From a virus: DNA of 64,000 bases. Below are positions 2,889 through 44,416 of this stretch, piece by piece (positions within the stretch are counted from its first letter, which is position 1; each line of letters starts with the position of its first letter). The position numbers and the translations under genes are program-made. The DNA lies in the IMG/VR virus record IMGVR_UViG_3300014541_000001, positions 9,504-73,503 of that record. One strand, 5' to 3'. Below the pieces are notes generated by a model, which was not told the DNA's origin, made no database searches, and saw nothing but the letters and a program-made list of their open reading frames with translations.

Positions 2889-3854
2889 CTAAATAGCAAC
2901 ATATCCTCTTTTAATGAACTCTTCATGTAAAGGATGAGCTAATGTATAAGCATCAGGATGAGCATGTTGTTTATCATCTCTTAATACAAAGAAATGCTCC
3001 CAATCACTGATAAATGCAGTATGTACTAACTCTGAATTAGTATCCAAAGGCAATATAGTCCTAGCTTGCTGAGGTATCCAACCTAAGCCTATCATCTTAT
3101 GATAAGCCACTTCACAACATTGATTAGCCCATACCCACCAGTCAATAGCATTCCAATTATAAGTCTCTCTTTCATAAAGAGTTCCCCATTTATCATCAGC
3201 TATGATGTCTCTACCTACTAAACTATCTTCCACTTGTTGAACAGTAATCCAATCAGGGAGATTAATACCTACACCTTCAAACTTCTTACCATCAGTATAG
3301 TCACAATATCTTGTGGACTGCTCAGCCATAGAGTTTACCCTATGCCTGTTATACTCTCTGGTAATAGCTATCTGAGTAGTAAAGTGTACTGTGACTCTCT
3401 TAGCATGATGCTCTGTAAGTTCACATAGATACTGTAAATCATCAAGCCAATTCTTATCATAGTTATTAGCTTGAGCTTCATCCCATGTTTCATAATCACC
3501 TTGAAGTAATACCCTGTAATTAGTAGTGATATTATAAGTAGTATATGGAATACCTCTATTACTCAAGTCACTCTTATTCTCATAAACAACTACAGCAGAA
3601 TAACCATTCTTTTCATACTTATAAGTAGTTGGGAATGTATTACTCATAGTATTGTTTAGTTGCAAATAAACAGTACCATGTTCTAACACAGCACCATGAC
3701 CTAACTTAATCATTCTATCTACAAAGGTTTTAGCCTTTCCTTCAATAGGGTCACTAGCATAACAGATTCTACCTGCTTTCTCAATCTGTTTATAGATACC
3801 TTCAAGACCTTCCTCTTGATTCCATATCTCAAATGATGGTTTACACAATCTCAT
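2889..3854 (-). CDS. thyX: flavin-dependent thymidylate synthase ThyX
   Basis: ThyX signature YNRHRVNSMAEQSTRY (RHRx7S...RY) plus ICYAS/VLEHG N-terminal motifs. Confidence 0.85.
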   Translation of the reverse strand: MRLCKPSFEIWNQEEGLEGIYKQIEKAGRICYASDPIEGKAKTFVDRMIKLGHGAVLEHGTVYLQLNNTMSNTFPTTYKYEKNGYSAVVVYENKSDLSNRGIPYTTYNITTNYRVLLQGDYETWDEAQANNYDKNWLDDLQYLCELTEHHAKRVTVHFTTQIAITREYNRHRVNSMAEQSTRYCDYTDGKKFEGVGINLPDWITVQQVEDSLVGRDIIADDKWGTLYERETYNWNAIDWWVWANQCCEVAYHKMIGLGWIPQQARTILPLDTNSELVHTAFISDWEHFFVLRDDKQHAHPDAYTLAHPLHEEFIKRGYVAI

Positions 3855-3855
3855 A

Positions 3856-4113
3856 TTATTCCTCTATTACTTCGAACTCATCCTCTACCCATTGCATATG
3901 CTTAGCTAATTCAGGGAGGGATAATTGCTTTCTAGTCTCTCTTACTAAGTCCTCTTGGGTATACCCTTTAGGCATATTGACCTTAAGACTTATACTAACA
4001 GTAAGACTAGCAAGTACTTCAACCTCTTGATTGAGCTCCTGATTCCACGGAGCATCAGGAGTATCACTTCCAACTGGGTAATCATAATTATTCATAATTC
4101 CATATAAATCCAC
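3856..4113 (-). CDS. hypothetical protein
   Basis: 85-aa ORF. Confidence 0.35.
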   Translation of the reverse strand: MDLYGIMNNYDYPVGSDTPDAPWNQELNQEVEVLASLTVSISLKVNMPKGYTQEDLVRETRKQLSLPELAKHMQWVEDEFEVIEE

Positions 4114-4603
4114 CAGCAGTAGCTCGAACCCCTTTGCAACATCTACTAATATTAGAAGTTGGAATATTAAGTTCTTTTGAAGCTTCTGCTATACTGTTAA
4201 ACACTCTTATTAACTGCCCATTCTTAGAGAATTGCATGACTCTTTTCCCCAATGAATAGGTTAAATTATAACTATTTGTACACCATTCAAGATTACTAAC
4301 ATTATTATTTCGTTTGTTTTCATCTATATGATTAATGTACCTCAATTCATTAGGATTAGGTATGAAGGTCTCTGCTACTAATCTGTGAATACTCTTATCT
4401 TTTGCCTTACCATTCAAGTATAAGCCCACGTGCTCATAACCAGAAGTATCAATCATAGGAGATAGAATACCTCTTTTACAAGTATTATAAGTTCCTATAC
4501 TTTTGACTCTCCCAAAAGTACTAACTTCATATTTTCCCTCAAAACCATTAATAGGTTTCCATATCTCTTCCATAATATTATTGTACAATAACCTCTGGGT
4601 CAT
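4088..4603 (-). CDS. HNH homing endonuclease (NUMOD4 + HNH_3)
   Basis: WKPINGFEGKYEVSTFGRVKS (NUMOD4); HRLVAETFIPNPN...INHIDENKRNNNVSNLEW (HNH); C-terminal CCKG...GGFIW. Confidence 0.8.
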   Translation of the reverse strand: MTQRLLYNNIMEEIWKPINGFEGKYEVSTFGRVKSIGTYNTCKRGILSPMIDTSGYEHVGLYLNGKAKDKSIHRLVAETFIPNPNELRYINHIDENKRNNNVSNLEWCTNSYNLTYSLGKRVMQFSKNGQLIRVFNSIAEASKELNIPTSNISRCCKGVRATAGGFIWNYE

Positions 4604-4850
4604 CTTTAGCCCCTGCTGGTAAATTATCCATCTTCTTTAACTTCTTTATGTCTAATTCCAAGTCATTTTCCTTGATTAGCCTTTTAGCAATAACACTTTC
4701 AAGTTTAGCTGGTATACTTATATGCCTCCCTCTGTTATTAGTATAGATAGCATGGTCCCCACTATGTCTATTATAGTGGAAACCATTAGCTCTTACTATT
4801 CTAACAAACTCTTTATGTTTATACTGCTTCATTTGCTGTATCAATTTCAA
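4578..4850 (-). CDS. HicA-like (YcfA family) toxin-like protein
   Basis: ANGFHYNRHSGDHAIYTNNRGRHISIP matches the HicA core hGFxxxRxxGSHxxY...vtiP. Confidence 0.45.
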   Translation of the reverse strand: MKLIQQMKQYKHKEFVRIVRANGFHYNRHSGDHAIYTNNRGRHISIPAKLESVIAKRLIKENDLELDIKKLKKMDNLPAGAKDDPEVIVQ

Positions 4851-5133
4851 CTACTTGTTCTGCCAATAATCCAGCACATGGAGGTTCTATGATTTCTTCA
4901 ATCCTTGTAACCTTATATAGGTGCTGCATTCCATTAAATACTCCTTGAGCTTTAAGTATTCCCTCTGCTTGTTTAGGATTTCCAGCTTTAACAACTGCGC
5001 ATCCTTTACCAACTCCATGAACAATAAACTCAAGTACCCACAACCTCATAGGTACATTGCTAACAGGACAGACTTCTCTGTCTCTATTAGGTGATGTGTC
5101 TATTGGTCCACAATATATTCCTGTCTGACTCAT
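4819..5133 (-). CDS. hypothetical protein
   Basis: 104-aa ORF upstream of the HicA-like gene. Confidence 0.4.
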   Translation of the reverse strand: MSQTGIYCGPIDTSPNRDREVCPVSNVPMRLWVLEFIVHGVGKGCAVVKAGNPKQAEGILKAQGVFNGMQHLYKVTRIEEIIEPPCAGLLAEQVVEIDTANEAV

Positions 5134-5528
5134 AATGAATTATCACATTTCTTTTGATTGTCCATCCACATTACAGTCATTACACAATAGTTAGCCATAT
5201 CAAGTAATGTATCTCTAATAGATTCATCTTTAACTAAAGCTTCATCACCTTTGGACAACTTCTTGAATCTTAACCACTTATCACCTAACCTAATTCTTGC
5301 AGCAGCAAGACCTTCTTCATTACAAGAACTTTCAAAGGAATTACCATAGTCATGGTTCTTCCTTGCAAAGGTTTCAATCATGCCTTTGACTATTTCCTTA
5401 AAGTCATGTACTGGACTAGCTAATGCTACAATGTTTGCTTCCTCTGCTGCCTTTATCATTTCTTCCATTCCTCTTCCATTGTTTATATGTTTCAAACTTG
5501 ACCATAAAGTCATTTTCCTCTCTCGCAA
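5130..5528 (-). CDS. DUF1599-like (nucleotide-modification-associated domain 1) protein
   Basis: KNHDYGNSFE...GLAAARIRLGDKWLRF resembles the phage DUF1599 core; assignment from memory. Confidence 0.4.
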   Translation of the reverse strand: MRERKMTLWSSLKHINNGRGMEEMIKAAEEANIVALASPVHDFKEIVKGMIETFARKNHDYGNSFESSCNEEGLAAARIRLGDKWLRFKKLSKGDEALVKDESIRDTLLDMANYCVMTVMWMDNQKKCDNSL

Positions 5529-5736
5529 ATAGCTGACCTGACTTGAAGCTCATGTACATAATACCATCAACCCACATCTTACTTGTAGGGTCTTTGATTA
5601 AGCATTTACCTTTGTATAAATACCTATTACCTTTATATACATAAGTTTGATTCTTCTCAATCCTGTCAGCTACAAACCACATAAGAATAAGCCCTACTAT
5701 TAATAAGGTTATTACCATACCTGCTAATATAATCAT
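5416..5736 (-). CDS. small membrane protein (start uncertain, overlaps the previous ORF)
   Basis: N-terminal TM helix MIILAGMVITLLIVGLILMWF. Confidence 0.3.
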   Translation of the reverse strand: MIILAGMVITLLIVGLILMWFVADRIEKNQTYVYKGNRYLYKGKCLIKDPTSKMWVDGIMYMSFKSGQLFAREENDFMVKFETYKQWKRNGRNDKGSRGSKHCSIS

Positions 5737-6317
5737 ATTAATGAATCCAATTTCTTATTCAAATTTCTAACCAGCAATCTTAATTCTTCTAAGGTTGCAT
5801 CATTCTTTAGCCTATTTGCTCTATTACTAATAACCCAAACATTTCCTCTAACATATCCAAGTTCTGGTATGATTTTATCAATAGAAGGAGAATTGTCAGT
5901 TCCTGCTAGTTTGTTACCAACATGCTTAACTAATTTAATATTTAAAAGAGGACAATACTCCGGAATATTTATATCAGATAGAGTTATATCAAAAGGAACT
6001 TCTTGTCTTAGTGCCCTTTGCTTAGCACCTCTTAACAGGTACTTTTTGTAGGATTCCTCATTTGAAGTAATCCTTCTTAAATTAGCACTTTTTTCTCTCT
6101 CAATATATCCATCTTCGAACTTCCTTCTTTGTTCTCTTCTCAGTCTTCTTCTCTCCCTCTGTTCATCAGTATTATGTAATTCATGGTCACACTCCTTACA
6201 AATACTTCTTTTTCCATACATACCATTACCCTTACAATAAGATTCTAGAGGTAACTCTCTTCCACATCTTGGACATGTTTTCGTCTGATTTGGTCCTGCT
6301 ACTTTTTTTATTCTCAT
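5733..6317 (-). CDS. HNH endonuclease with N-terminal Zn-finger
   Basis: CPRCG...CKEC; SIDKIIPELGYVRGNVWVISNRANRLKND HNH_3-type core. Confidence 0.65.
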   Translation of the reverse strand: MRIKKVAGPNQTKTCPRCGRELPLESYCKGNGMYGKRSICKECDHELHNTDEQRERRRLRREQRRKFEDGYIEREKSANLRRITSNEESYKKYLLRGAKQRALRQEVPFDITLSDINIPEYCPLLNIKLVKHVGNKLAGTDNSPSIDKIIPELGYVRGNVWVISNRANRLKNDATLEELRLLVRNLNKKLDSLI

Positions 6318-6403
6318 ATCTTATAAATTTTATACAAAAATATAAAATATAATTATAAATAGCAAGACCCAAATCAAAATATTATGGATTCACTAATAAT
6401 TTT

Positions 6404-8794
6404 TTAATGCACCCAGTACTTGTTTATCTCTGCTTCAGCAGGAATAGGAAGTTTAGTACAAAATACACTTGCTGACTCTTCCATAAAGAACTTAAGTTTA
6501 TCTGCTATTTCAGGCATGGTTTCAGGATACTCAATACAAGCTTCATCATGTACTAAATTGACTATCTTTACTACTCCAAACAGGTTGTTTTCAACAATCC
6601 ATTTAAAGAAGTTAGTCATAGCATACTTTAATATACATATTCCTGTTCCCTGCGTCGGGGAATTGAGGCCTAATCTACCCCATTTACTAACAGCTTTGAA
6701 ATGAAGAGATACTCTTCTCTTCATCCAAGTCTTATGAAATTCATCACCAAGTTCCTCCTTCTTTCTTCTATATTCATCCCAGAAGTCACTGTCAAATTTA
6801 GCACCTTCAATTAACCAATATGAATGGTCACTCCAGTACACCTTATGTCCAGTTAAAGGATTAATAAGAATATATCCATTCTTCTTTACAGACTCTAAAG
6901 CCCTCTTACCAAAGGCAGTTACCCCCGGAAAACCCTTATCATAAGCATCACCAATCTTGTCAGCTTCTTCTATTGGGATACCCAAAGAATCTGCTATTGA
7001 AGAAGAGCCACCACCAAACTGTTTAGCAAACTCTGGTGCTTTGGCTTTCTTTCTTAAATCAGGTCTTTTCTTCTTGATGTCCTTAACTTCAATACCCTTA
7101 AGTTCTTCAGGAAAACATGCCTTGGCTACTAGTGAGTGCATATCACCTGAACCATGAACAAACTCATGAATCATTGACTTCTCATTATAAATGTCAGCCC
7201 CTAATCTTGATTCAAGTGCACTATAGTCACAACTACAGAACATGTTACCTTCTTCACATATAAAACAACTTCTTGTTCTATTGTTACCCGGCAAATTCTG
7301 TATTTGAGGATATGCACACTTTAGTTTATTGTTCTTGGTATTAAGTGGCAGCTTCTTTAACTTAGCCAAGTCAGTGTTAATCTGTTGAGAACCACATGCC
7401 ATTCTACCTGATGATGCTCCAAGCTGCTTGAATACAGTATGTATCCTTCCTGTCTTAGGATTAATAGCATTAAGGTATGATTGTCCATAAGTAGAACATA
7501 CCTTATCAGCTTCCTTATAGTCAAAGTAGACCTTAAGGAAAGCATCATTAATGCCCTTTTGCTTGGATAATACCTTTTCAAGTGCTGAATCAGCTTCCTC
7601 TCCTGTGCTCTTACTAATGACTGTAGTGTTGAACCCCAGTGTCTTAAGAATAGGCACAACTTGTCTTGAACTATCCCAGTTAATCACACATATTGGCTCA
7701 GTATTAAAGCCTGAAAACAAGTCACCTTGCCTGTTTATCATAACATATTTACTAGGGAGTCTCTTCTTAATCTTACATTTGTAAGCCTCAAATTGTGCTC
7801 CACATTCATCTGTTATATCAAGCTCTGGTGCTCTAAGTTCATTCTTAAATGACTTTCTTTCATCTTCTATATCATCTTCCTCTTTGTCAGACAATGATAT
7901 ATAGGCTGTGAAATACTCCTTGCCAGTACATGAGCTAACTATGAAGTCATTAAGTGAACTAAGAAATACCTTCTGAAGCACTTCATCAAATACCATCTTC
8001 TTCTTCCACTTAGCTTCATCAAGTTTAATACCACACCATTCAAGATAGGATATAACAGGAACAAATTCACATTCAAGTCTAGCTCCATTAAGTAAGCCTT
8101 TAGCTCTAAGGACCTCAACCTGTTTGTTCATTATAGCCCCAAGATACATGACATCTCCTGCTGCATACTTGATGACAGAAGTATCAATGCCTCTCCATAT
8201 AATCTCCCCTCTGACTGTCTTGTCAATATCTATTCCTAGATACCTGTAAGCAATAGCCTTTAAGGATGCTCCTGAATGGTTGTATATAAACTCTGCTACA
8301 TCAGGTACATTGTTATACAGTAATGCTTTCTTTGTATCAGGGTCAAGCTTGTCATATCCTTCATAGTTATAGGCAAAGTCACAATATTGGTTTATTGTTT
8401 CATTGTCCATACCTACTAGAAAGAATGGATAACCAAGATAGATTAACTGTTCTACAATCATGGTATCATAACACTGGGTTACAATTATGCCATAATTAAA
8501 TAGGAACTGTAAGTCAAACTTTAGATTCTGACCTATCATAAAGTGAGTCTCAATGTACTCCTTGTAGACCAAAGGAGAAATAGCGGTAACATCTACCACT
8601 ATTTGATTCTCCCCTTCAATATCTCCAAATTGCATCATCAAAACATCATTAATATGTGCATCCCTGCCATTAGTTTCAGTATCAAACTGAAACATATTCC
8701 AAGTAGACAGCATCCTTAATGATTCCTCTACACTTATCTTGGTATAGGCATCATCAGTGAATAGTTCAGATTGACCACTTACAAAATAAATCAT
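6404..8794 (-). CDS. DNA polymerase I family A with 3'-5' exonuclease domain
   Basis: Exo I FDTETNG; motif A DYSALESRL; motif B KAPEFAKQFGGG; motif C VHDEACIE. Confidence 0.9.
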   Translation of the reverse strand: MIYFVSGQSELFTDDAYTKISVEESLRMLSTWNMFQFDTETNGRDAHINDVLMMQFGDIEGENQIVVDVTAISPLVYKEYIETHFMIGQNLKFDLQFLFNYGIIVTQCYDTMIVEQLIYLGYPFFLVGMDNETINQYCDFAYNYEGYDKLDPDTKKALLYNNVPDVAEFIYNHSGASLKAIAYRYLGIDIDKTVRGEIIWRGIDTSVIKYAAGDVMYLGAIMNKQVEVLRAKGLLNGARLECEFVPVISYLEWCGIKLDEAKWKKKMVFDEVLQKVFLSSLNDFIVSSCTGKEYFTAYISLSDKEEDDIEDERKSFKNELRAPELDITDECGAQFEAYKCKIKKRLPSKYVMINRQGDLFSGFNTEPICVINWDSSRQVVPILKTLGFNTTVISKSTGEEADSALEKVLSKQKGINDAFLKVYFDYKEADKVCSTYGQSYLNAINPKTGRIHTVFKQLGASSGRMACGSQQINTDLAKLKKLPLNTKNNKLKCAYPQIQNLPGNNRTRSCFICEEGNMFCSCDYSALESRLGADIYNEKSMIHEFVHGSGDMHSLVAKACFPEELKGIEVKDIKKKRPDLRKKAKAPEFAKQFGGGSSSIADSLGIPIEEADKIGDAYDKGFPGVTAFGKRALESVKKNGYILINPLTGHKVYWSDHSYWLIEGAKFDSDFWDEYRRKKEELGDEFHKTWMKRRVSLHFKAVSKWGRLGLNSPTQGTGICILKYAMTNFFKWIVENNLFGVVKIVNLVHDEACIEYPETMPEIADKLKFFMEESASVFCTKLPIPAEAEINKYWVH

Positions 8795-16142: not shown

Positions 16143-16814
16143 TTAATGCTCTTGATACCACTTGATAGTAGTACCATACTTACTTTTTAATTCCCTGTTA
16201 ATATCAGTAAACAGTTCAGGGTTCATCTTAGTTTCTGTCCTTGCATTATATGCAGGATGAGGTACTTTAATCACTGTTCCTGTTTTAATATAAGGCTGAA
16301 ATGTACCAGCCTGACTTCCAAATAATACATATATCAGACCGGGATTAGTTTCTGATATGTTCTTCAACAAACTGCTGATAAATGGTCTCCATAACATAGT
16401 ATGACTACCAACCTTATTCATCTCTACAGTCAATGCTGAATTAATCATCAATATCCCTTGTCTTGCCCAACTTTCTAAGGTCTGGTCAAAGATAATGCTA
16501 TTATGTGGAACCTCAAAGTTAACTGCTGCTTCTTTAACAACTTTTAAAGAAGGAGACAACTCATCCTCTGGTACATCAGCTTTGTTACCAAATAGTATTC
16601 CTGTAGCCACATCTCTTTGTGGATATGGGTCTTGTCCTATAAATACTACTTTCAACTCATTATAAGGACATAAATCAAAGGCTCTGAATACATTTTCAGC
16701 TGCTGGACAGACTTTCTTTGAGCCATAAAGCCTGTTCATTGCATCAATAACTATATTCAGTTCCTTTTGATTTATAACTCTTATCCAATCACCAAAGTAT
16801 TCCTCTAGGCTCAT
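16143..16814 (-). CDS. ung: uracil-DNA glycosylase (family 1)
   Basis: VVFIGQDPYP (UNG water-activating loop GQDPY) and HPAYNA (His-loop, HPSPLS-like). Confidence 0.8.
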   Translation of the reverse strand: MSLEEYFGDWIRVINQKELNIVIDAMNRLYGSKKVCPAAENVFRAFDLCPYNELKVVFIGQDPYPQRDVATGILFGNKADVPEDELSPSLKVVKEAAVNFEVPHNSIIFDQTLESWARQGILMINSALTVEMNKVGSHTMLWRPFISSLLKNISETNPGLIYVLFGSQAGTFQPYIKTGTVIKVPHPAYNARTETKMNPELFTDINRELKSKYGTTIKWYQEH

Positions 16815-17614
16815 ATCTTCATGTATTCTCTCATAAGTCCAATGTTATCCTTTAGGAAACTATTGACTTCTTCATCATTGAAGTGAGATAAATCAGGCAT
16901 ATCAGGTTTATGAATGAACCTATCACTTACATCAGCTATGATGATTTCAGGCATCTTCTTTGTATATACTCTATTTCTATTTTCATCAGAAAAATTGAAC
17001 TTATTATGTACCATAGAAGTAGAAGTATTAAGAGATGCTCCTTCTGCTATCACAGTAGGAATAAGCTTCTTAAGGATATTCTTCTCAACTGGTCCATCAC
17101 CTGTAAACACCTTAGGACTGATATACATTATTGGCTTTAGAAGTTCAATGAATGGATTAGTCAAGTTGTACTTGACTACATTCAACATCAATAACTCCAT
17201 TCTGCTGTTAAATATGACACCAGCACCACCATAATACACAAGACCTGTATTAGTTGTTACCTTACTCAACTTGTAATGAGTAGAAGTTTCAAGCATGGTT
17301 CTTATCATAGAATCTGATGTTCTCTTGGTCTCTTCTTTGCCAACAGAGAGAGAAGTAATATAACATTCAATTATGTTATCCTTATACTCCTCAATGTTCC
17401 CAAAGTTCTTGTTATCAATAAGGATTGATTGAACTTCTCTCCTACAGAATATAGGAACCTCAACTTCAGGACCTCTTAGGTCTATTTCAAAGAACCTTTG
17501 AAACACATTGTTACTATTGAAGTTAACCAAATTAGTATCAATGTTCCTTGTGAATGAGTTACTTCTTGGAAAGTCAAGACTTCCTAATACTGTTCTTCCA
17601 TATATTCCTGCCAT
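16811..17614 (-). CDS. hypothetical protein
   Basis: 267-aa ORF abutting the E1-like gene stop. Confidence 0.45.
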   Translation of the reverse strand: MAGIYGRTVLGSLDFPRSNSFTRNIDTNLVNFNSNNVFQRFFEIDLRGPEVEVPIFCRREVQSILIDNKNFGNIEEYKDNIIECYITSLSVGKEETKRTSDSMIRTMLETSTHYKLSKVTTNTGLVYYGGAGVIFNSRMELLMLNVVKYNLTNPFIELLKPIMYISPKVFTGDGPVEKNILKKLIPTVIAEGASLNTSTSMVHNKFNFSDENRNRVYTKKMPEIIIADVSDRFIHKPDMPDLSHFNDEEVNSFLKDNIGLMREYMKI

Positions 17615-18942
17615 TACATTTCAACTTTAAAATACATTGTATCAGCTGCAAAGGAAGTATAGAATGGTACATCTCTTGGCATAATAGGATTACACTCATT
17701 TGCAACAAAGTTTACAAAGATGTTGACCATAAGTGATGCAATCATGTTAGCCATGAATGTAGTCTGTTTATAACTACATACAGTAGCATCAGCAATTTCA
17801 TCACTAAATAACCAGTCTCTTTGATATTGTTCTATTGCCCTTGTGTCATTACCTTGAATAGCCAGAACTTGTAGCTCTTCTGCTGCAAGTCTACCATCAA
17901 TAAGCAAGCATTTACCTCTCTCTTCTTCTGGTTTAGACATTACATGAGCATACCATTTTTTGAATACAAGCTTCCTTGCAGCCATGTTATCAAATCCACA
18001 AATCATGATGTCCTCAACAGCACTGTTCTCATTATACAGTCCATTCATAGCAACAGTACTATGATAGTCAGCATAATTAGCTACCATATCTGCAAGAGCA
18101 TCAACTTTTGGATGACTAATATCACTTCTGCCATACAACTGACCTGACATATTGACAGCTTCAACAATATCATTGTCAAATATGACAAGTCTTGCTGGTT
18201 TCATCCTTGCAAGAAGGAATCCAATATAACTACCAATACCTCCAACACCAGCTAAGATAATGTTCTTAGTCTGTAGTTGTTCATACCATATTGCACCACT
18301 GAACCTTGTAGTGGTTTCATCAACTGCCAAAGACCCTGAGTTAAGAGGAATCTCAATATGATTAGCTAATGCAAAGGCTCTACCTTTAGCATCTGCTTCA
18401 TCAAATCTTCCAGCCCAGTAGTTATTAACCCAAAACTCTTTCATGTTGTTACCTGCACCAGCGTTGTTCTCTTTAAGAACAATTCTCCATACACCATTAT
18501 TAGGTGCACTTGCATCACTTCTTTCACGACGATGGAGTGCTCTGTTTGCTTTTTGGATTATGTACCAAGTACCTGCTTCAATTCTCTTGATATATGTTTC
18601 AAGTTCTGTAGGTCTACCTTGTGGACTATAGCCACAACATACATAATCATTCTCATAACCTACAGGTGGTTCTGGCTCTGGTGGAACTGACAAAGGTTGT
18701 TCAGGCACAGCTACAGGTACAGGCTCAAGTTCAATTTCTCCATTAGCAGTCACTTCTTCCATAGCTGCTTGAAGTTGTTGCATTAACTCTATTGATTCAG
18801 GAGTTAATTCCATTTCAATATTAGTAGGAACACTAAGACTCTGTGCTATGGAAGACTCTGTGGATACTACTCCTTCAGTAATTTCACGAGTTATCGTTCT
18901 TCTTAGCTGTTCAACAGCAGCATCTCTTACTTCTTCATTCAT
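17614..18942 (-). CDS. E1-like ThiF/MoeB-family adenylyltransferase with ~230-aa N-terminal extension
   Basis: ILAGVGGIGSYIGFLL (GxGxxGS Rossmann); FDNDIVEAVNMSGQL (D.D.VE.SNL.RQ-like); SHPKVDALA; ICGFDNMAAR. Confidence 0.75.
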   Translation of the reverse strand: MNEEVRDAAVEQLRRTITREITEGVVSTESSIAQSLSVPTNIEMELTPESIELMQQLQAAMEEVTANGEIELEPVPVAVPEQPLSVPPEPEPPVGYENDYVCCGYSPQGRPTELETYIKRIEAGTWYIIQKANRALHRRERSDASAPNNGVWRIVLKENNAGAGNNMKEFWVNNYWAGRFDEADAKGRAFALANHIEIPLNSGSLAVDETTTRFSGAIWYEQLQTKNIILAGVGGIGSYIGFLLARMKPARLVIFDNDIVEAVNMSGQLYGRSDISHPKVDALADMVANYADYHSTVAMNGLYNENSAVEDIMICGFDNMAARKLVFKKWYAHVMSKPEEERGKCLLIDGRLAAEELQVLAIQGNDTRAIEQYQRDWLFSDEIADATVCSYKQTTFMANMIASLMVNIFVNFVANECNPIMPRDVPFYTSFAADTMYFKVEM

Positions 18943-18953
18943 GTTTAAATCTC

Positions 18954-20255
18954 CTATAAGATATAATCATCCAAACAACTAATATAAGACTTCATCCATA
19001 CATTTGATGGAAGTTCTTCAAGTGCAAGTCTTACTTCATAAGCAAGTATTGCAATCATCTCTGTGTCATCAAGTATATCAACCAATGTATCATCAGTTGT
19101 ATAATTGACTAAGAAATCAATGAAACCAACAGCAAAGTTTTCAAACTCCTTAACAGAATCAAATCTGTCTGAATACACCTTATCCATTGAGTTCATCCAC
19201 TTGTTGATGTCCACCTTGCTTTCAACTGGAAGAATAATACTACCAGTGATAATTTGTCTTACAAGCCAGTCAACAACCTTAGCATTTGCTCTTACTGTAC
19301 CATAAGGGATAGCATAATCATCATCAGGTTTTTCAAATGGAAGGTCTTTTTGAGTTGGTGCAGTATATGATGAACCCTGTGCAGGAAAGGAAGACTTATG
19401 TTCTTCAAACTCCTTCTTTGGCTGTCCATATTGACCTATGGGTACATAGTTACCACCTGCTGGTTTACCAGTGGCAGCACCTACCTGTAAGCCGGGGTAT
19501 CTACTTTGATAACCAGTGGTTCCATAGTTATTCCCATAACCATTGTAACCACCATAAGTAGCACCGGGTTTATATGCTTTCTTAGCTTTCTCTGCATCAA
19601 TTTCTTTCATGCGAGCAAGCATTTCCTTCTCAACTTCATCAACAGGAACAGTCTCTTTCTGAATCTCAAGAGGGAACCATTCAAGATATTCTTCTTCAGC
19701 TTCAAATTCATCAGTACCTGTGACTTCTCCTTCCTTCCAAGTAGGATAAGTGAACTCTTCTTTCACCTGTTGTTTGGCTTTATATCTCCTTGTAACTGCT
19801 GCACTATAAGTACCAGCATTGTTTACAATCAAAGACACAAAGTGTGCCATATCTTCACCCTCTTGACTTAATGTTCCTGTATCAGTTCCACTAAAGAAAG
19901 TAGCCATATTGTTATGACTATGAATAAGACCTTGAAACACATCTTCACTAAGCAATTCAGGATGGTCAATCATATAACTTACTATGTCAGGAGACACATT
20001 AAATTCTGTATAACCACCAGTTCCTTTATCCATCTGAAAGATGTCCACACACTTGATAGTCAAAGGATTGTCTTTATCATTAAAAGCACCTTCAACTTGA
20101 TAGAACAGTACTCCTGACCATTCTACTTGGCTAATGTGAGTACACAATAACCTGATTTTCTTTTCTACCTCTACAGGTATGATTATTTTATAGGGTAAAT
20201 CTGGTTTTCTTTTTATCAATTCCAGACTTGGCTTTTTTGCTGTTTCCATATTCAT
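18954..20255 (-). CDS. JAB/MPN+ (JAMM) metalloprotease with Gly/Tyr-rich low-complexity C-terminal region
   Basis: IHSHNNMATFFSGTD matches H-x-H-x7-S-x2-D; upstream Glu in QVEG. Confidence 0.7.
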   Translation of the reverse strand: MNMETAKKPSLELIKRKPDLPYKIIIPVEVEKKIRLLCTHISQVEWSGVLFYQVEGAFNDKDNPLTIKCVDIFQMDKGTGGYTEFNVSPDIVSYMIDHPELLSEDVFQGLIHSHNNMATFFSGTDTGTLSQEGEDMAHFVSLIVNNAGTYSAAVTRRYKAKQQVKEEFTYPTWKEGEVTGTDEFEAEEEYLEWFPLEIQKETVPVDEVEKEMLARMKEIDAEKAKKAYKPGATYGGYNGYGNNYGTTGYQSRYPGLQVGAATGKPAGGNYVPIGQYGQPKKEFEEHKSSFPAQGSSYTAPTQKDLPFEKPDDDYAIPYGTVRANAKVVDWLVRQIITGSIILPVESKVDINKWMNSMDKVYSDRFDSVKEFENFAVGFIDFLVNYTTDDTLVDILDDTEMIAILAYEVRLALEELPSNVWMKSYISCLDDYIL

Positions 20256-20952
20256 AATTTAATAATTCTAATATTGCACAAACATACTCTCTTACTATAT
20301 CTGTATTGAGTATTGTAGATACATTCCTTGCACCATTTGCTAATCCATTGATTACAAGATTAACATCCTTGCCTTTAAAGGTTAATACCTTCCTTCCTAC
20401 ATATTGACTGTAGTCCCTACTTGCATTTGAATTAGGGTCAAATATAGCACCATTAGCTATAATAGCCTGTTTAAGTACACCATCACCTTGAAGGTCATAT
20501 AAAGCTGGCATATTTGGTGCTTTTCTATACTCATCATTATACCAGTCAATGAAAGCATTACTTATGGTCAACACAGTATCAGTGAATGTATGAGCCAATC
20601 CATAGGAACCTTTTCTATAGTTGAACTTGAGTATGTTGTTGGTAAACAGGTAATCAAGGAACTTACTTGATAATTCCTTTGTGAAATATTCATTCGAGAT
20701 GTAATTATTCTGTTCTATAGGAAAGTTATCCCTCTTATTGCTGCCATTAGCACCAATATTCTCCATTCTTCTATAAGGACCACCACTAAGTGATTCTGTA
20801 CCCATATACCTTTCAAGTTCAAGACAGAATAACTGCCATATAGGTTCATCAAATCCTACTGTAAGACTACTCATAGTATTATTGATAGGACCACTACCAG
20901 TACACACACTTCTGAACTTAAAGTCAAAGTCAATACCACTTACATGACTCAT
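20188..20952 (-). CDS. hypothetical protein (start trimmed to MSHVSGIDFDF)
   Basis: The upstream part of the ORF overlaps the opposite-strand LAGLIDADG gene start. Confidence 0.4.
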   Translation of the reverse strand: MSHVSGIDFDFKFRSVCTGSGPINNTMSSLTVGFDEPIWQLFCLELERYMGTESLSGGPYRRMENIGANGSNKRDNFPIEQNNYISNEYFTKELSSKFLDYLFTNNILKFNYRKGSYGLAHTFTDTVLTISNAFIDWYNDEYRKAPNMPALYDLQGDGVLKQAIIANGAIFDPNSNASRDYSQYVGRKVLTFKGKDVNLVINGLANGARNVSTILNTDIVREYVCAILELLNYEYGNSKKAKSGIDKKKTRFTL

Positions 20953-21042
20953 TTTGTTATCTCTTAGGCTCTTTATCCTAAGAATCTTACTCTTCAGTTT
21001 TAAGTATTTTAATAAAGTTATTGTATCTCTCATGTATTTATC

Positions 21043-21053
21043 TTATATTTGCA
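21043..21053 (+). promoter_or_regulatory. Bacteroidetes-type -7 promoter box TTAtaTTTGCA
   Basis: Matches the recurring TTAnnTTTGCA motif; lies 17 nt upstream of the LAGLIDADG ATG. Confidence 0.45.
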
Positions 21054-21070
21054 GTCTAAATGCAAATATT

Positions 21071-21718
21071 ATGAGTAAATATTTAAGAAATAAAAATTAC
21101 TTTGATGTAATTGATACATATGCAAAAGCATATATTGTTGGATTTATTGCAGCTGATGGCTCTATAGTTAAATCATCAAGAGGCAATTCATATTACCTTA
21201 CTATAACTATCAGATATGAAGATAAAGATATATTAAACTTTATCAAACAGGAACTAGGTTCCTCACATAAACTAACAGAAATAAACAAGATAGGAGGTTT
21301 TGGCAAACCAATACATCATATTAGGTTAAGCATAGGTAGTACTAACTTAATAAGAGGATTAAACCAAGTAGGTCTATACTCTAATAAGAGTCTAACCATG
21401 GGTAATATAATAGAAAATATCCCTCAACAATATAGAGGAGCTTTCATCATAGGTTATATAGATGGTGATGGTTCTATAACCAGAGTATCTAATTCTCCAA
21501 ATAATAAAAGCCTCAATATACAAATAAGAGGGACAAGAGAATTTCTAAAAGGGATTACCTCAACCTTAGAAATGCCTGATACATATATATCACAATATGA
21601 CTCCATTCCTCAATTATCAATTACACACAAAAAATACCAAAGGACTCTATTTTCATATTATGAAAATCTTCCTTTCTACTACACTAGAAAATATAATAAA
21701 TTTCTAGGATACTTATAA
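21071..21718 (+). CDS. LAGLIDADG homing endonuclease (two-motif, monomeric type)
   Basis: YIVGFIAADGSIV and IIGYIDGDGSIT; the only plus-strand gene inside the 41-kb minus-strand block. Confidence 0.8.
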   Translation: MSKYLRNKNYFDVIDTYAKAYIVGFIAADGSIVKSSRGNSYYLTITIRYEDKDILNFIKQELGSSHKLTEINKIGGFGKPIHHIRLSIGSTNLIRGLNQVGLYSNKSLTMGNIIENIPQQYRGAFIIGYIDGDGSITRVSNSPNNKSLNIQIRGTREFLKGITSTLEMPDTYISQYDSIPQLSITHKKYQRTLFSYYENLPFYYTRKYNKFLGYL

Positions 21719-21908
21719 GTAAGTTCAGACTATATCATCACCTATAAATTATAGGGCTGGGCACTCGTGTCTCTATTATATTCTGCAATTAGCAGTTTCA
21801 AGAGTTAGTCGTTGAACCTTCAAAGAGCTTTTAAACTCTAAGCTTGGCTGCTGATTGTCCTGTACAAGGAGTTTCCAGCAATTCACCCAGTTTTTTATGC
21901 ACTGTCTT

Positions 21909-22439
21909 TTAATGCATATAATCAGACTGCATATGTACAACATCATACTCTGATCTGTTCATTTTGAACCAGCCTTTGCCTTTACCTTCCCATGTTACAG
22001 GAACCTTTGCCCACAGATTATCAACTTCTACAGTTCTATCATATTCATTCCTGATAGTTACATGAGGAAAATGTACTATAATAGGTATGTCTATGAACCA
22101 TCTATTCCCTATGAACTCTTTTATATAGTTAACATACCTGTCAAATATACTTTCATTAGTAACTAAGGACATACTTCCTGCTGCTACTCTGAAATTATTT
22201 AATAGGTTAGAATCAGCATGTCCTCTATAATATTGAGTGTTAGCAAAGTCACTTGTATTACCAACTATCTCATACAAGTTGTTAGTTTCAAGTAAGTTAA
22301 TAAAGTCTTCCAAGCTAATAGGCTGTAAATCCACTCTTTCCTCACCATAGAAGTCATTGAATATATCTGTGACTGCTCTTGGAAGTTCAAGCAACTCTCG
22401 ATAAAGAGCTTCTATCTTTTGTTTCAATTCTTCATTCAT
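21909..22439 (-). CDS. hypothetical protein
   Basis: 176-aa ORF. Confidence 0.45.
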   Translation of the reverse strand: MNEELKQKIEALYRELLELPRAVTDIFNDFYGEERVDLQPISLEDFINLLETNNLYEIVGNTSDFANTQYYRGHADSNLLNNFRVAAGSMSLVTNESIFDRYVNYIKEFIGNRWFIDIPIIVHFPHVTIRNEYDRTVEVDNLWAKVPVTWEGKGKGWFKMNRSEYDVVHMQSDYMH

Positions 22440-22506: not shown

Positions 22507-23208
22507 TTATTTTGCAAAGGCAAACATTTCATCAATATCTCTCTTGGACATCTTTTCAGATGCAGGAGCTTCTGATGCACCACCATTCAGAAGACCCATA
22601 ACTTTGTCATAAGTATCTTCTTCAATGGTATCATTACCATACAAGTCTTCAACAAGAGCTTTCAAAGCTTCTTCACAGTTGCCTGATGCTGGTGCTGCCG
22701 GAGCCACAGGAGCTGTTTCCTCTTTCTTAGCTTCTGCAACATGTTTCTTTGCAGCTTTCTTTGCTACAGGAGCAGGAGCCGGAGCTTCAACTTTTGCTTC
22801 TTTTTTACCCTGTGATTCAATTAAGTCAATCAAGTCTTGAGTCTTACACATGGTGAAGTTCTTACCAAACTTTACTACACAAGCAGCTTGCAAGCCATTA
22901 GCCTTGATTGCATCATAGGCTTCACTTCTTGTCATAGCACCTGACTTGATTTTCTTTTCAGGAGCAGTCAACAGGAATGTCAAATCATTGACAATCTGAC
23001 CTTTGTAAGGGATATTGGTAGGCAGTGGAGCTGCATCATCTTTCAATTCAGCTCTCATGTGACCTTCAAAGAAAGTCATACCTTCATAGTTGATACCAAG
23101 TTCTCTCATTTCAGCCTTTAATTCACCAAGGTTTGTAGCACTGGATGCCTGAATAACTGATTGTTTCTGAGTCTTGTTATTGATAATTGTTACTTTACGA
23201 GTTTCCAT
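22507..23208 (-). CDS. hypothetical protein with Ala/Pro/Lys-rich linker (possible DNA-binding)
   Basis: EAPAPAPVAKKAAKKHVAEAKKEETAPVAPAAP. Confidence 0.45.
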   Translation of the reverse strand: METRKVTIINNKTQKQSVIQASSATNLGELKAEMRELGINYEGMTFFEGHMRAELKDDAAPLPTNIPYKGQIVNDLTFLLTAPEKKIKSGAMTRSEAYDAIKANGLQAACVVKFGKNFTMCKTQDLIDLIESQGKKEAKVEAPAPAPVAKKAAKKHVAEAKKEETAPVAPAAPASGNCEEALKALVEDLYGNDTIEEDTYDKVMGLLNGGASEAPASEKMSKRDIDEMFAFAK

Positions 23209-34455: not shown

Positions 34456-34590
34456 TGGGGGTGAAAGGACTCGAACCTTTATAAGATAGTTTTACAAGAC
34501 TATTGTGTCAACCGAAGTAACTCTTACTAACCACTACTGTTTTACCAGAGAACATTTGTAAGAGTGTTGTGTTTATTGCACCACACCCCC
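34456..34590 (-). ncRNA. tRNA-like RNA 2 with ~60-nt conserved insert (candidate YrlA-type Y RNA)
   Basis: Ends pair as a 7-bp acceptor (GGGGGTG/CACCCCC); T-arm AAAGG-TTCGAGT-CCTTT; internal conserved block ACTCT..AAATGTTCTCT-hairpin-AGTAGTG..AGAGTTACTTCGG. Confidence 0.55.
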
Positions 34591-34621: not shown

Positions 34622-34757
34622 TGGGGATAATAGGATTTGAACCTATGACCATGAGCTTAAAAGGCTGAAGTAACTCTATTTATCACTACTTGTGTATGAC
34701 ACAAGAGAACATTTAACAGAGTATAATACGTGCTCTACCTGACTGAGCTATATCCCC
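34622..34757 (-). ncRNA. tRNA-like RNA 1 with ~60-nt conserved insert (candidate YrlA-type Y RNA)
   Basis: Acceptor GGGGATA/TATCCCC; D-arm GCTC..GAGC; T-arm ATAGG-TTCAAAT-CCTAT; Lys-like CTTTTAA loop in the 3' part; same internal conserved block as RNA 2. Confidence 0.55.
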
Positions 34758-37772: not shown

Positions 37773-37813
37773 ATCCCCAACTGGACTCGAACCAGTGTCT
37801 AAGGTAGTAATTG
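37773..37813 (-). pseudogene. 3'-half tRNA fragment
   Basis: ACTGG-TTCGAGT-CCAGT T-arm plus TGGGGAT acceptor 3' strand, with no matching 5' half. Confidence 0.3.
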
Positions 37814-37886
37814 TGGCTCAAATGAGGGTCCAACTCATAACCTTCTCCTTAGGACGGAGCTGCTCTATGCATTGAGCTATTGAGCC
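37814..37886 (-). tRNA. tRNA-Arg(CCU)-like with atypical T-loop
   Basis: Manual cloverleaf: GGCTCAA/TTGAGCC acceptor; D-arm GCTC..GAGC; loop GTCCTAA; T-loop TTGGACC is non-canonical. Confidence 0.5.
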
Positions 37887-39807: not shown

Positions 39808-40023
39808 TCATGCCTGTCTCCTTTCTCTAAAGGATTTAATCTCTTGCTGTATGTATGACTCAAACTGTTGTAAGTCATCAATTACTCTTGGTTTACTTGT
39901 AATAGCAAGTAATGCAACACTGTTATTGTTGTGTTGCTCTGTCAGGTAATTAATGTGTGCTCTTCTTGATGATGAGTAGTTGCTGCTACTAGCAACAGCT
40001 ACTCTGTTTAATCTCTTTCTCAT
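39808..40023 (-). CDS. hypothetical protein
   Basis: 71-aa ORF. Confidence 0.3.
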   Translation of the reverse strand: MRKRLNRVAVASSSNYSSSRRAHINYLTEQHNNNSVALLAITSKPRVIDDLQQFESYIQQEIKSFRERRQA

Positions 40024-40214
40024 ACTACATTTGTAATGTATCAGGGACTGCCACTATCACTACATTGTTGTAGTTTTCTTTGCATTTCTTTGCCACATCT
40101 TTGGCTTCTTCTTCTGTTGAACACAGATAGAAAGTCTTGTGCCCAAACCTCTTGTTGTCTGAGCATAATACTAGTCTTTTTCTCATGTGATTATGTATTA
40201 ATGGGTTAATGTTT

Positions 40215-40291
40215 TGAGGCTAATAGGAGACTTGAACTCCTAACCTTCCTTTACTCTGCAAGGATGCTCTAACCAATTGAGCTAATTAGCC
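40215..40291 (-). tRNA. tRNA-like gene with apparent 8-nt anticodon loop (GCAGAGTA), anticodon unassigned
   Basis: Acceptor GGCTAAT/ATTAGCC; D-arm GCTC-AATTGGTTA-GAGC; T-arm AGGAG-TTCAAGT-CTCCT; the only 5-bp anticodon stem (TCCTT/AAGGA) leaves 8 loop nt. Confidence 0.45.
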
Positions 40292-40695
40292 TATAGTTTA
40301 TATAAAGACTTGTTGCAATGCTATATGTCACATCAGGTATCTTCTCAATCAAATTAGCTTGATGCTGCTTTCTACTTTTTGATGTATCAGACGGTTCACC
40401 TCACATACTAACTTTGATGTTTAACACACCATAAACTAATACACATTTTTCGGATAGCTTGATACTATTGTCAACCACTATTTGTACATATTTAGCTGGT
40501 CAAAAGCCTTTATTATCTTATTTTATTGGTATACTAGTTCTTGTTTAACACAATTTAATGGCTTGTGTTCAATGACAAATGACTACTATTGTTCATCAGT
40601 TGTCTACCTAAGTGGTACATTGGAGTAAATACTAAAGGGTAAATAATGTTATTATCTAGTGTATTCTTAGTGAGTGGTACTTCAACTGTGAGGAG

Positions 40696-40730
40696 TAAAA
40701 AAGGTAGGAAGGGACATAAGCCCCTTCCCT
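40696..40730 (-). terminator. intrinsic terminator (minus strand)
   Basis: Minus strand: GGGAAGGGGCTTATGTCCCTTCC then TACCTTTTTTAC. Confidence 0.55.
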
Positions 40731-40737
40731 CATTACC

Positions 40738-41052
40738 CTAGAATGCAGCAATCACATTACTGTTAGTCCCTTGCTCATGCAATGTCAGCAAAGTCTTGCC
40801 CTCTTTGGTTCTCACTTCACTGACAACAACAGTCTCAAATGGCTGCTTGGCTACCATTTTAGCAGCCAACTTGTCAGCCACATAGCCAACAATGTTGCCA
40901 CATGCAAAGAAGAACTTGCCCTGTTTATTAGGGGAAGGAATAACTCGCAAAGGTTGGTTACCTTGAGAAGCCTTAACTTCTTCTACAGTCACTGTGTTCA
41001 AGAAATTGGAATCACTGTTGCTAGTAGCAACATACTTTGAAAAATCAATCAT
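40738..41052 (-). CDS. hypothetical protein
   Basis: 104-aa ORF; last gene of the minus-strand block. Confidence 0.45.
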   Translation of the reverse strand: MIDFSKYVATSNSDSNFLNTVTVEEVKASQGNQPLRVIPSPNKQGKFFFACGNIVGYVADKLAAKMVAKQPFETVVVSEVRTKEGKTLLTLHEQGTNSNVIAAF

Positions 41053-42640: not shown

Positions 42641-42714
42641 TGCCCCTTGGTGTAATTGGTTAGTCACATAGGATTTTGATTCCTATAGTATCAGTTCAAG
42701 TCTGGTAGGGGTAA
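42641..42714 (+). tRNA. tRNA-Gln(UUG)
   Basis: Manual cloverleaf; loop TTTTGAT; T-arm ATCAG-TTCAAGT-CTGGT. Confidence 0.55.
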
Positions 42715-42720
42715 CATAAT

Positions 42721-42794
42721 GCTCCCTTAGTTCAATGGATTAGAACATTGCTCTTCTAAGGCAAGTGTTAGGGGTTCGAGTCCCTTAGGGAGTA
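42721..42794 (+). tRNA. tRNA-Arg(UCU)
   Basis: Loop CTTCTAA; T-arm AGGGG-TTCGAGT-CCCTT. Confidence 0.65.
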
Positions 42795-42875
42795 CATGAC
42801 TTTGGAATGGATATAAATTGTTTTTGTAATAAAATGAATAGACTAATTGGTCTGTGAAGATAAACTAATCAAAAT

Positions 42876-42949
42876 GGTGGGTTGGACAAATTGGTTAAGT
42901 CACTGCCCTTTCAAGGCAGTCATTAGGGGTTCAAATCCCCTACCCATTA
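42876..42949 (+). tRNA. tRNA-Glu(UUC)
   Basis: Anticodon arm CTGCC-CTTTCAA-GGCAG; T-arm AGGGG-TTCAAAT-CCCCT. Confidence 0.6.
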
Positions 42950-42957
42950 CAAATTTA

Positions 42958-43028
42958 GTCTATGTAGCTTAATGGTTAAAGTGCTGCACTGTCAATGCAG
43001 AGAACAGGGTTCAATTCCCTCATAGACT
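42958..43028 (+). tRNA. tRNA-Asp(GUC)
   Basis: Anticodon arm CTGCA-CTGTCAA-TGCAG; acceptor GTCTATG/CATAGAC. Confidence 0.6.
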
Positions 43029-43083
43029 GCGAGTTTCTACGCCATGAAACAAGTCCTATATTAAGCGTAATATAGGCAGGAAT

Positions 43084-43174
43084 GGAAGAATAAGCCTAAT
43101 GGTAAGGCAGTAGTCTTGAAAACTACTAGTAATCATGTAAAAGTGATGTGTCAGTTCGAGTCTGACTTCTTCCT
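43084..43174 (+). tRNA. tRNA-Ser(UGA), class II long variable arm
   Basis: Anticodon arm GTAGT-CTTGAAA-ACTAC; long variable arm; T-arm GTCAG-TTCGAGT-CTGAC; acceptor GGAAGAA/TTCTTCC. Confidence 0.7.
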
Positions 43175-43176
43175 CT

Positions 43177-43374
43177 ATGATACAGATACTAAGAAAAGAA
43201 GGTTGGATATTAAATCCTAATGATAAGGTAGTAAATGCTATCCTTAAGAGATGTGAGATTAATGATGGTGAATGTCCTTGCCATAATGAAGGAGAAGACA
43301 AACACTGTCCATGTAGTGATTACAGAGAAAAGGATGAATGTCATTGTGGGTTATATGTCAAATTGGAGAGTTAA
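43177..43374 (+). CDS. small Cys-rich protein (CPC..CPC..CHC)
   Basis: 65-aa ORF with ECPCHNEGEDKHCPCSDYREKDECHCG, located between tRNAs. Confidence 0.35.
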   Translation: MIQILRKEGWILNPNDKVVNAILKRCEINDGECPCHNEGEDKHCPCSDYREKDECHCGLYVKLES

Positions 43375-43457
43375 CCTAAGAGGTCTTAGGGACTGCCTGC
43401 TAAGCAGATTGTACCAGTAATTGGTATATGTTTCAAGTACATAGCTCTCCGCATAAT

Positions 43458-43530: not shown

Positions 43531-43537
43531 CTTAATG

Positions 43538-43896: not shown

Positions 43897-43915
43897 CAGT
43901 TAAATTGGAAGAGTT

Positions 43916-44414: not shown

Positions 44415-44416
44415 CT

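Follow-up and report, generated by a model that had tools for sequence, protein, structure and literature searches.

What does a phage need with an enzyme of the ubiquitin-activating (E1) kind, encoded beside a peptidase of the kind that removes ubiquitin? The question is raised by a stretch of viral DNA 64,000 nucleotides long (IMG/VR record IMGVR_UViG_3300014541_000001, positions 9,504 to 73,503; hereafter the window), which belongs to a crAss-like phage of the Steigviridae type with a GC content of ~35%. Its nearest annotated relatives are the Bacteroides phages DAC15 and DAC17, Kolpuevirus, bajarodcaudo virus 1 and crAss001 (family Steigviridae). A reading made from the letters of the window and nothing else (the sequence-only reading) had pointed to two adjacent minus-strand genes, a ThiF/MoeB-type E1 at 17614-18942 and a JAB/JAMM metalloprotease at 18954-20255, and both are found at these positions on that strand. 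As annotations the two are not new: crAss001 Gp76 was deposited under the name 'thiamine biosynthesis protein ThiF', Gp77 under that of 'metalloprotease domain containing protein', and NCBI calls some orthologues 'E1 enzyme family protein'.

Instead, we focus on the company that the pair keeps. Within the replication module it makes up half of a cassette of five genes, co-directional and tightly packed, whose members are a Gp79-like protein (the candidate precursor of a ubiquitin-like modifier, Ubl), X (Gp78-like), JAB (Gp77-like), E1 (Gp76-like) and Y (Gp75-like). From sequence, predicted structure and analogy, the cassette is probably a virus-encoded ubiquitination pathway that resembles the bacterial Bil system in architecture and logic and is built from different protein families. 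Phage Ubl conjugation with a Bil-like gene order was one of the options that the sequence-only reading had listed, and it is the one favoured by the evidence below; sulfur-carrier and pure counter-defence readings are less well supported. That reading also identified the E1 and the JAMM peptidase correctly, while its two further proposals, that a Ubl is missing and that an E2 hides in the E1, did not survive. Unless stated otherwise, all cassette features of the window lie on the minus strand.

A Predicted Ubiquitin-Like Domain Upstream of the Peptidase

The sequence-only reading had found no obvious Ubl nearby, having looked for a small β-grasp protein ending in Gly-Gly. A ubiquitin-like β-grasp domain is nevertheless predicted two genes upstream of JAB, where it forms the N-terminal part of the 233-residue Gp79-like protein (22507-23208) and ends in an invariant Ser-Gly rather than in Gly-Gly. 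In the AlphaFold2 model the domain takes up residues 1-90 (22939-23208), with the fold itself in residues 1-82, the element order β-β-α-β-β-β-β-β and a mean predicted local distance difference test score (pLDDT) of 79-92 per ten-residue block over residues 1-80. A Foldseek comparison with the PDB brings almost only ubiquitin, UBX, DIX, SUMO and ISG15 to the top (probability ~1.0, target TM-score 0.5-0.67, with modest E-values of 1e-3 to 1e-2), while ThiS and MoaD are both missing from the top 50 matches. The fold gives way to a flexible tail, K85-K-I-K-S-G90 (22939-22956), which coincides exactly with a stretch of low confidence in the model (pLDDT <50) and ends in the Gly that is the candidate for activation or processing. 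K85, S89 and G90 are invariant in 79 distinct Gp79-like sequences, and no diverged lineage has lost [K/R/D]-S-G, not even that of Fpv3, where identity has fallen to 25%.

Beyond Gly90, secondary structure in the AlphaFold2 model and alignments divide the C-terminal part (residues 91-233 and the stop codon, 22507-22938) into a three-helix unit that a disordered Ala/Pro/Lys linker connects to a helical domain, and a conserved S..EIDxMF tail. This part is dispensable in cis. It is absent from locus L106, where the Ubl is a stand-alone open reading frame of 83 residues (positions 3048-3299 of that locus) ending …KVKSG-NKN-stop, three residues past the Gly. In locus L009 (uncultured phage cr106_1, 3468-4671) it is a separate open reading frame: a free-standing HNH endonuclease (3748-4263) has been inserted exactly after K-S-G, leaving a 92-residue Ubl that ends …KSG-KF-stop, two residues past the Gly, and a separately initiated C-terminal protein of 130 residues. 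An intron was considered as the cause of this split and rejected, as none was detected in the L009 gene and there is no room for one. The S..EIDxMF tail itself (22507-22560), acidic and aromatic, is kept from crAss-type to distant lineages and is reminiscent of the protein-recruiting tails on single-stranded-DNA-binding proteins.

A protein of two parts joined at a candidate processing site can also be read without any conjugation cascade. The JAMM peptidase would then be a maturation protease that parts the Gp79-like halves or cuts other phage proteins, the E1-like protein would adenylate a peptide or nucleotide other than a Ubl, as MccB, PaaA and TcdA do, and X would serve as an RWD-like scaffold of the replisome. 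We regard this as unlikely, the first argument being the one just given: an invariant Gly that two lineages place 2-3 residues short of the stop codon would be needless in a mere linker.

The E1-Like Enzyme and the Sulfur-Carrier Question

The assignment of the 442-residue E1 (17614-18942) to the E1 superfamily holds. It exceeds the gathering score of Pfam ThiF PF00899 (E=1.2e-16, 61 bits against a cut-off of 28.1, over residues 220-416) and contains a Rossmann-type adenylation domain with a GxGxxG loop. Pfam, invariant residues and hhalign place the adenylation core in residues ~201-442 (17614-18342). Conservation was scored on an alignment of 17 diverse homologues, among which the C-terminal ~240 residues are 50-70% identical, and the motifs that the sequence-only reading had quoted are all present and mostly invariant. 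Aligned by hhalign with E. coli MoeB and ThiF, whose reference sequences were checked against 1jw9_B and 1zfn_A, the enzyme reaches a probability of 96% locally and 94% globally. Invariant R213 corresponds to the Arg finger R14 of MoeB, G232, G234 and G235 to the nucleotide-binding Gly loop of MoeB and ThiF, N264 to N70, invariant K279 to MoeB K86, and invariant D318 to the Mg-binding D130 of MoeB; D256 is a further feature of the core. The crossover-loop cysteine (C187 in MoeB, C184 in ThiF) is matched in the global alignment, with low per-column confidence, by invariant C389 (codon 17776-17778). No CxxC zinc sites occur in the family alignment. Ranked against the PDB, the E1 profile finds UBA5, MccB, PaaA, TcdA, UBA6, ThiF, UBA3 and Cap2; BilD is not among the matches. 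UBA5, a true Ubl E1, is tied with MccB as the best of them, a second point against a pathway without a cascade.

The likeness to ThiF brings in a different role, that of a sulfur carrier. The β-grasp domain would then be of the ThiS/MoaD/TtuB kind, the JAMM peptidase would expose its Gly as QbsD and Mec+ do, and the E1 would form a thiocarboxylate for the thiolation of phage tRNAs, a nucleotide or a cofactor. ThiF equivalogs are indeed the best NCBIfam matches of the E1, C389 aligns with the ThiF cysteine that forms the acyl-disulfide with ThiS, and the cassette is located among genes of nucleotide metabolism. The 24 tRNA genes of the phage include those for Gln-UUG, Glu-UUC and Lys-UUU, tRNAs that are normally 2-thiolated. 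However, the NCBIfam matches are partial and reach no equivalog threshold (58 against 159 bits for ThiF PRK08644, 27.7 against 450 for UbaA and 28.2 against 144.75 for PRTRC_ThiF), and with scores so far under the cut-offs an identity as a ThiF, MoeB, UbaA or PRTRC equivalog was rejected. The Ubl model sides with ubiquitin, SUMO and UBX, with ThiS and MoaD outside its top 50, and an E2/RWD-like protein with an invariant Cys, the product of X, always stands between Ubl and JAB. Among the neighbours scanned in several lineages, moreover, no rhodanese, cysteine desulfurase, PP-loop thiolase or other sulfur enzyme adjoins the cassette. A sulfur carrier is, in our judgement, about as unlikely as a set of proteins with no cascade.

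In front of the core, residues 1-200 (18343-18942) form an acidic and Pro-rich extension. The sequence-only reading was right that such an extension exists and had proposed that it might be a degenerate E2. This was rejected: in the alignment the extension is hypervariable, its VCCGYSP motif does not keep its cysteines, and the whole extension is missing from the orthologues of bajarodcaudo virus (284 residues), Fpv3 (228 residues) and P0231, which leaves X as the better E2 candidate. One segment of the extension, residues ~100-195 (18360-18640; GTWYI…GAWRI…FWVNNYW..RF.EA), is conserved inside one sub-lineage and absent from the crAss001-like, DAC15, bajarodcaudo and Fpv3 orthologues; it could be an accessory domain particular to that sub-lineage.

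The JAMM Peptidase

JAB (433 residues, 18954-20255) consists of a JAMM domain in residues ~1-180, a Gly/Tyr-rich linker and a C-terminal domain in residues ~310-433. It carries IHSHNNMATFFSGTD, with the HxHx7SxxD motif at 19881-19922. The motif noticed in the sequence-only reading is real, although the window protein itself scores only 16.3 bits on Prok-JAB PF14464, below the cut-off of 25: H112, H114, S122 and D125 are invariant in aligned homologues down to 34% identity, and in the same homologues the upstream E45 is invariant or nearly so. From this conservation in sequence, we judge that the motif is not due to chance. More than 3,500 homologues were detected, several of which have a precomputed PF14464 match (some of them weak), and the orthologue from the Flavobacterium phage Fpv3 matches a JAB model of PADLOC at 4.5e-6. 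Archaeal JAMM1, Rpn11 and CSN5 are the best PDB sequence matches of the family profile, all of them non-significant. What had been taken for a Gly/Tyr-rich tail is actually the linker that leads into the conserved C-terminal domain. With a hidden Markov model (HMM) of that domain, JABc, it is detectable (18954-19325 in the window) in crAss-type lineages only.

X, a Candidate E2 Interrupted by an Intron

The remaining member of the core is less familiar, since X has no match in Pfam, NCBIfam, PHROG or PADLOC. In the window it appears as two open reading frames, of 176 and 281 residues, which match residues 1-180 and 181-433 of Gp78, respectively. Exon 1 (residues 1-176, 21912-22439) ends in …DYMH, as judged by BLASTP to Gp78 and the sequence at the splice junction, and exon 2 (residues 177-429 of the spliced protein, 20188-20949) starts with SHVSG. 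They are separated by a group I intron (20950-21911), for which the match to Rfam RF00028 (75.9 bits, E=5.6e-19, at 21707-21921) spans the full-length model. The intron has the proper boundaries, with U preceding the 5' splice site and G, at 20950, as the last nucleotide, and splicing restores in frame the most conserved motif of the X family, Y-M-H/S-H, with the stroke marking the junction. A free-standing endonuclease as the cause of the break was accordingly rejected. The LAGLIDADG homing endonuclease (20954-21718, plus strand; Pfam LAGLIDADG_3 and LAGLIDADG_1) lies antisense within the intron. The sequence-only reading had placed the E1/JAB pair between UDG and this LAGLIDADG gene; the pair adjoins neither, as Y intervenes between E1 and UDG and exon 2 of X lies between JAB and the LAGLIDADG frame.

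At a 50% clustering level the X family has 1,017 representatives. Among 62 of them with ≤50% identity to one another, H179, C193, C219-x-E221 and E229-S230 are invariant and H177 is nearly so. The residues Y175-x-H177-S-H179 are followed 14 residues on by C193 (P0361 numbering; codon 20902-20904), the candidate catalytic Cys, which exon 2 contains together with C219-x-E221. The high-confidence structural model of X shows a helix (97-115), a four-strand meander (119-167), the Y-x-H-S-H loop, Cys193 and then helices. The motif, resembling the 'YHPN…C' of E2 enzymes and following the meander as it does, and the order of the elements in the model fit an E2 core. On this predicted structure, the scales tip slightly towards X being the E2 of the cassette. 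Retention of the invariant Cys after an HxH motif, across representatives this diverse, also argues against X as a simple scaffold in a system with no cascade.

Homing Elements in the Cassette

The intron of X is mobile and polymorphic. Intact, intron-free X genes of 429-430 codons are found in loci L005-L008, in which JAB is 94-98% identical to that of the window, and in P0361, which is 98% identical to exon 2. Related copies of the intron, with ~68% nucleotide identity, occur in the JAB genes of L087, L106, L110 and L131/L132, and it therefore seems that a single intron family has moved from one gene of the cassette to another. The endonucleases tell a similar story, in that the LAGLIDADG protein of the X intron is 57% and 39% identical to those which split JAB in L087 and L106. 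In L106, an opposite-strand LAGLIDADG gene splits JAB (4636-6951 of that locus) within the JAMM motif itself (…GGIHTH / …NCFFSGTD). The JAB gene of L132 holds a group I intron, that of L087 a related intron with its endonuclease, and in L110 both JAB and E1 are split. Homing elements typically target sequence that is highly constrained and functionally important. Their repeated arrival at the active-site codons of X and JAB therefore implies that these, too, are strongly constrained and functionally important.

Conservation and Distribution of the Cassette

The gene order primase, Ubl, X, JAB, E1, Y, UDG is found in essentially all of 80 Steigviridae-type loci, so that the primase adjoins the cassette within the replication module. 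In the window the gene junctions measure -68, +11, -1 and -4 nt, and overlaps and gaps this short suggest co-translation. The largest overlap places the start codon of JAB 68 nt inside the 3' end of X (20188-20255); Gp78 and Gp77 of crAss001 are likewise annotated as overlapping, by 62 nt, and the feature common to both therefore suggests either a conserved translational coupling or an alternative start further downstream.

Including the Flavobacterium-phage-type lineages along with those of crAss type, Ubl, X, JAB and E1 are contiguous and in the same order in ~170 loci. The more diverged environmental lineages among them were reached by a second scan of loci, led by the E1 of Fpv3, with the genes mapped by HMM. 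There the four-gene block is kept while the flanks vary: UDG lies upstream of the block or is lost, other genes stand between primase and Ubl, and those after E1 differ. X always lies between Ubl and JAB. In the collection of annotated phages, each of three proteins (Ubl, X and JAB) turns up in one and the same set of 45 non-Flavobacterium records, and distant homologues of X (31-33% identity) share the same gene context. All loci lie in phage genomes or contigs of ~90-105 kb. On the bacterial side, 185,579 species genomes yielded X in three contigs of metagenome-assembled genomes (MAGs), all phage-like; the family is essentially restricted to phages, and a bacterial origin of X was rejected on this result.

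The fifth gene, Y (267 residues, 16811-17614), starts in overlap with the stop codon of E1 and is kept downstream of it. It has no family matches and no recognisable fold or motif. Through hhalign it is linked to the gene after E1 in Fpv-type phages (87% probability, E=3.6e-6), and it is probably a fifth conserved component of the cassette.

Comparison With Known Systems

BilABCD operons encode, in this order, a Ubl, an E2, a JAB/JAMM deubiquitinase and an E1 (PMC10557695). The phage cassette has the same four parts in the same order, as far as the moderately supported E2 call for X goes, and this equality is the last of the points that disfavour a set of proteins with no cascade. The likeness extends to the modifier. 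BilC, the JAMM protein, cleaves BilA between Gly97 and Ala98, and Type II BilA carries, after a Gly that is universally conserved, as many as nine residues that are not (PMC10557695), while a subset of Type I BilA has an overhang of 2-9 residues past its conserved C-terminal Gly (bioRxiv 10.1101/2023.09.04.556158). The phage Ubl likewise is ubiquitin-like and not ThiS-like in its model and has a conserved Gly with an overhang, so that its Gly90/Ala91 parallels Gly97/Ala98 of BilA.

The differences are just as clear. Bil systems reside in bacterial defence islands, whereas the phage cassette is part of the replication module of a lytic phage. The Bil E1 has an IAD-AAD-CYS architecture with a four-Cys zinc site, but that of the phage is a single adenylation domain of ~230 residues (228 in Fpv3) with no zinc site. 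The phage Ubl is usually fused to a C-terminal region of ~140 residues, and there is the additional conserved gene Y. At ~430 residues, X has its HxH before the Cys, whereas in the CEHH motif of Type II BilB the Cys comes first, and with the order of the motif reversed X was rejected as a CEHH-type BilB. Run against PADLOC, X, Y, the Ubl and the window JAB give no match, and E1 matches only the generic E1 half of the Cap2 models, on which grounds membership of the cassette in the Bil or Cap families was rejected as well.

Other systems share some of the parts. As the phages do, the SAMP/UbaA/HvJAMM1 system and the Thermus TtuB/TtuC system combine a JAMM protein with an E1 of one MoeB/ThiF-like domain and a β-grasp modifier that has a C-terminal Gly; archaeal JAMM1 heads the PDB sequence matches of the JAB profile, and the E1 matches the UbaA model weakly, at the 27.7 bits (against 450) given above. 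These systems double as sulfur carriers and have no E2, unlike the phage cassette, in which the E2/RWD-like protein is always present. In Bub (6E/DUF6527), as is proposed for the phage cassette, a Ubl is released from a fusion protein, although there the fusion partner is an E2 and the peptidase is not a JAMM (per the Bub paper); Bub is also encoded by the host and shows no sequence similarity. Among phages themselves, the TAPI protein of lambdoid and T1 phages is a Ubl with a conserved terminal Gly, a linker and a C-terminal domain, with cleavage predicted to be made by the adjacent JAB (Iyer et al., 2006, PMC1779556). Thus both TAPI/TAPK (JAB-NlpC/P60) and the present cassette put a Ubl-linker-domain protein beside a JAB peptidase. 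TAPI/TAPK, however, is found in a tail-assembly module with neither E1 nor E2 and no conjugation is expected of it, in contrast to a cassette placed in the replication module.

The pairing of E1 with JAB recalls Cap2/Cap3 of CBASS, and the phage E1 matches the Cap2 models of PADLOC at 2e-10. That match covers only the nucleotide-binding half, the Rossmann region, and the cassette is unlike CBASS in that it has no CD-NTase or effector but does have a true Ubl, and in that its E2 candidate is a separate and unrelated protein, where Cap2 is an E1-E2 fusion. Still, the likeness invites a view of the cassette as counter-defence, acting mainly to neutralise host Ubl immunity such as Bil or Cap2/Cap3: the JAMM protein would free phage proteins of host Ubl, or the E1, E2 and Ubl of the phage would compete with or mis-modify defence proteins. 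Every characterised prokaryotic Ubl-conjugation system in the literature searched is anti-phage, and both the Cap2 match, to E1-E2 models, and that of the Fpv3 JAB to its PADLOC model point in this direction. It is also generally known that phages capture and repurpose defence components. On the other hand, a deconjugating protease alone would suffice for the purpose, yet the full set is strictly conserved. The cassette lies in a core replication module and not in a variable accessory region, the family is essentially confined to phages, with the three MAG contigs offering no close bacterial donor, and sequence membership in the Bil families is lacking. Counter-defence therefore seems unlikely, to much the same degree as the other two alternatives. 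It is a proposal about biological role, and as such it is compatible with the cascade mechanism set out next.

Proposed Pathway and Points Against It

The Bil-like pathway that we favour would proceed in four steps. First, the JAMM peptidase would cut the Gp79-like precursor after Ser-Gly90, or trim two or three residues from the stand-alone forms, to give a C-terminal Gly. Second, the E1, with its ThiF-sized adenylation domain and the residues described above, would adenylate Gly90 and take up the Ubl as a thioester on the crossover-loop Cys389; it is probably a homodimer, like MoeB, ThiF and UBA5. Third, the Ubl would be handed to invariant Cys193 of X, acting as E2 on the strength of a moderate similarity in fold. 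Fourth, the Ubl would be joined to lysines of phage or host proteins, a reaction that the JAMM peptidase could also reverse. Y may serve as adaptor, E3-like factor or substrate.

Several observations weigh against this pathway. The assignment of X as an E2 is its weak link, with support from one method only: Foldseek with X found nothing in the PDB (best E=0.087), hhalign with four canonical E2s gave a probability of 0.09%, and in 62 diverse members of the family there was no match to the UQ_con or Prok-E2 models of Pfam at E≤0.1. As for the modifier, the model of the Ubl comes from a shallow alignment (20 sequences, ≥64% identity), to which the modest Foldseek E-values must be added, and the conserved Ser-Gly could be a mere linker between domains. 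In the E1, the near-universal Arg of the S-N-L-x-R-Q motif (MoeB R73) is replaced by G267 in 17 of 17 homologues and by Asn in L106; with the canonical Arg of NxxRQ missing, the chemistry of adenylation may therefore be altered. Finally, the whole replication module is syntenic among Steigviridae-type phages, which makes the linkage signal partly phylogenetic, and because of this the order in the 80 Steigviridae-type loci is weak evidence when taken alone.

With these points counted, it falls just short of an even chance, in our estimate, that Steigviridae-type crAss-like phages and the related Flavobacterium and environmental phages encode a complete and self-contained Ubl-conjugation pathway which they use offensively, on host proteins or on phage proteins associated with replication.

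Other Features of the Window

At ~40000-41000, the GC skew changes sign, from negative on the left to positive on the right, where the coding strand also switches; this is a module boundary or a point of divergence for replication or transcription. Most of the 24 tRNA genes of the window form one array on the plus strand (42641-47404), and two others are on the minus strand at 37813-37886 and 40216-40291. For the latter an anticodon loop of 8 nt ('agag') is predicted, so that it could be a tRNA of the frameshift-suppressor kind or an artefact. Rfam finds two further tRNA-like elements that are not reported by ARAGORN, both on the minus strand (34456-34590 and 34622-34687). One of the two is 135 nt long and may hold an intron or an insertion.

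Significance

In the literature searched, coverage of which was incomplete, no prior description of a phage-encoded Ubl/E2/JAMM/E1 cassette was found, and conjugation of Ubls in prokaryotes (Bil, Bub and Cap2/Cap3) is described there solely as a means by which bacteria resist phages. In the order of Bil, the same four-part scheme is a strictly conserved core feature of abundant human-gut phages related to crAss001 and DAC15, as well as of distant aquatic phages. The parts are minimal: an E1 core of ~230 residues, stand-alone Ubls of 83-92 residues, and a new E2-like family, not covered by any Pfam model, whose diverged representatives number more than 1,000. Putative functions are thereby offered for four or five 'hypothetical' core genes of crAss-like phages, and the hypothesis is directly testable in culturable pairs of phage and host (crAss001 with B. 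intestinalis, DAC15 with B. thetaiotaomicron, and the Fpv phages with F. psychrophilum).

If the cassette is active, phages would also be users of Ubl conjugation, and its targets might be sought among host defence, the replication and proteolysis machinery of the host, or the phage's own replisome. It would be the first ubiquitination system of a virus of bacteria, a minimal and tractable relative of Bil immunity and of eukaryotic ubiquitin signalling, and it would make it conceivable that such cascades have passed between phages and their hosts.

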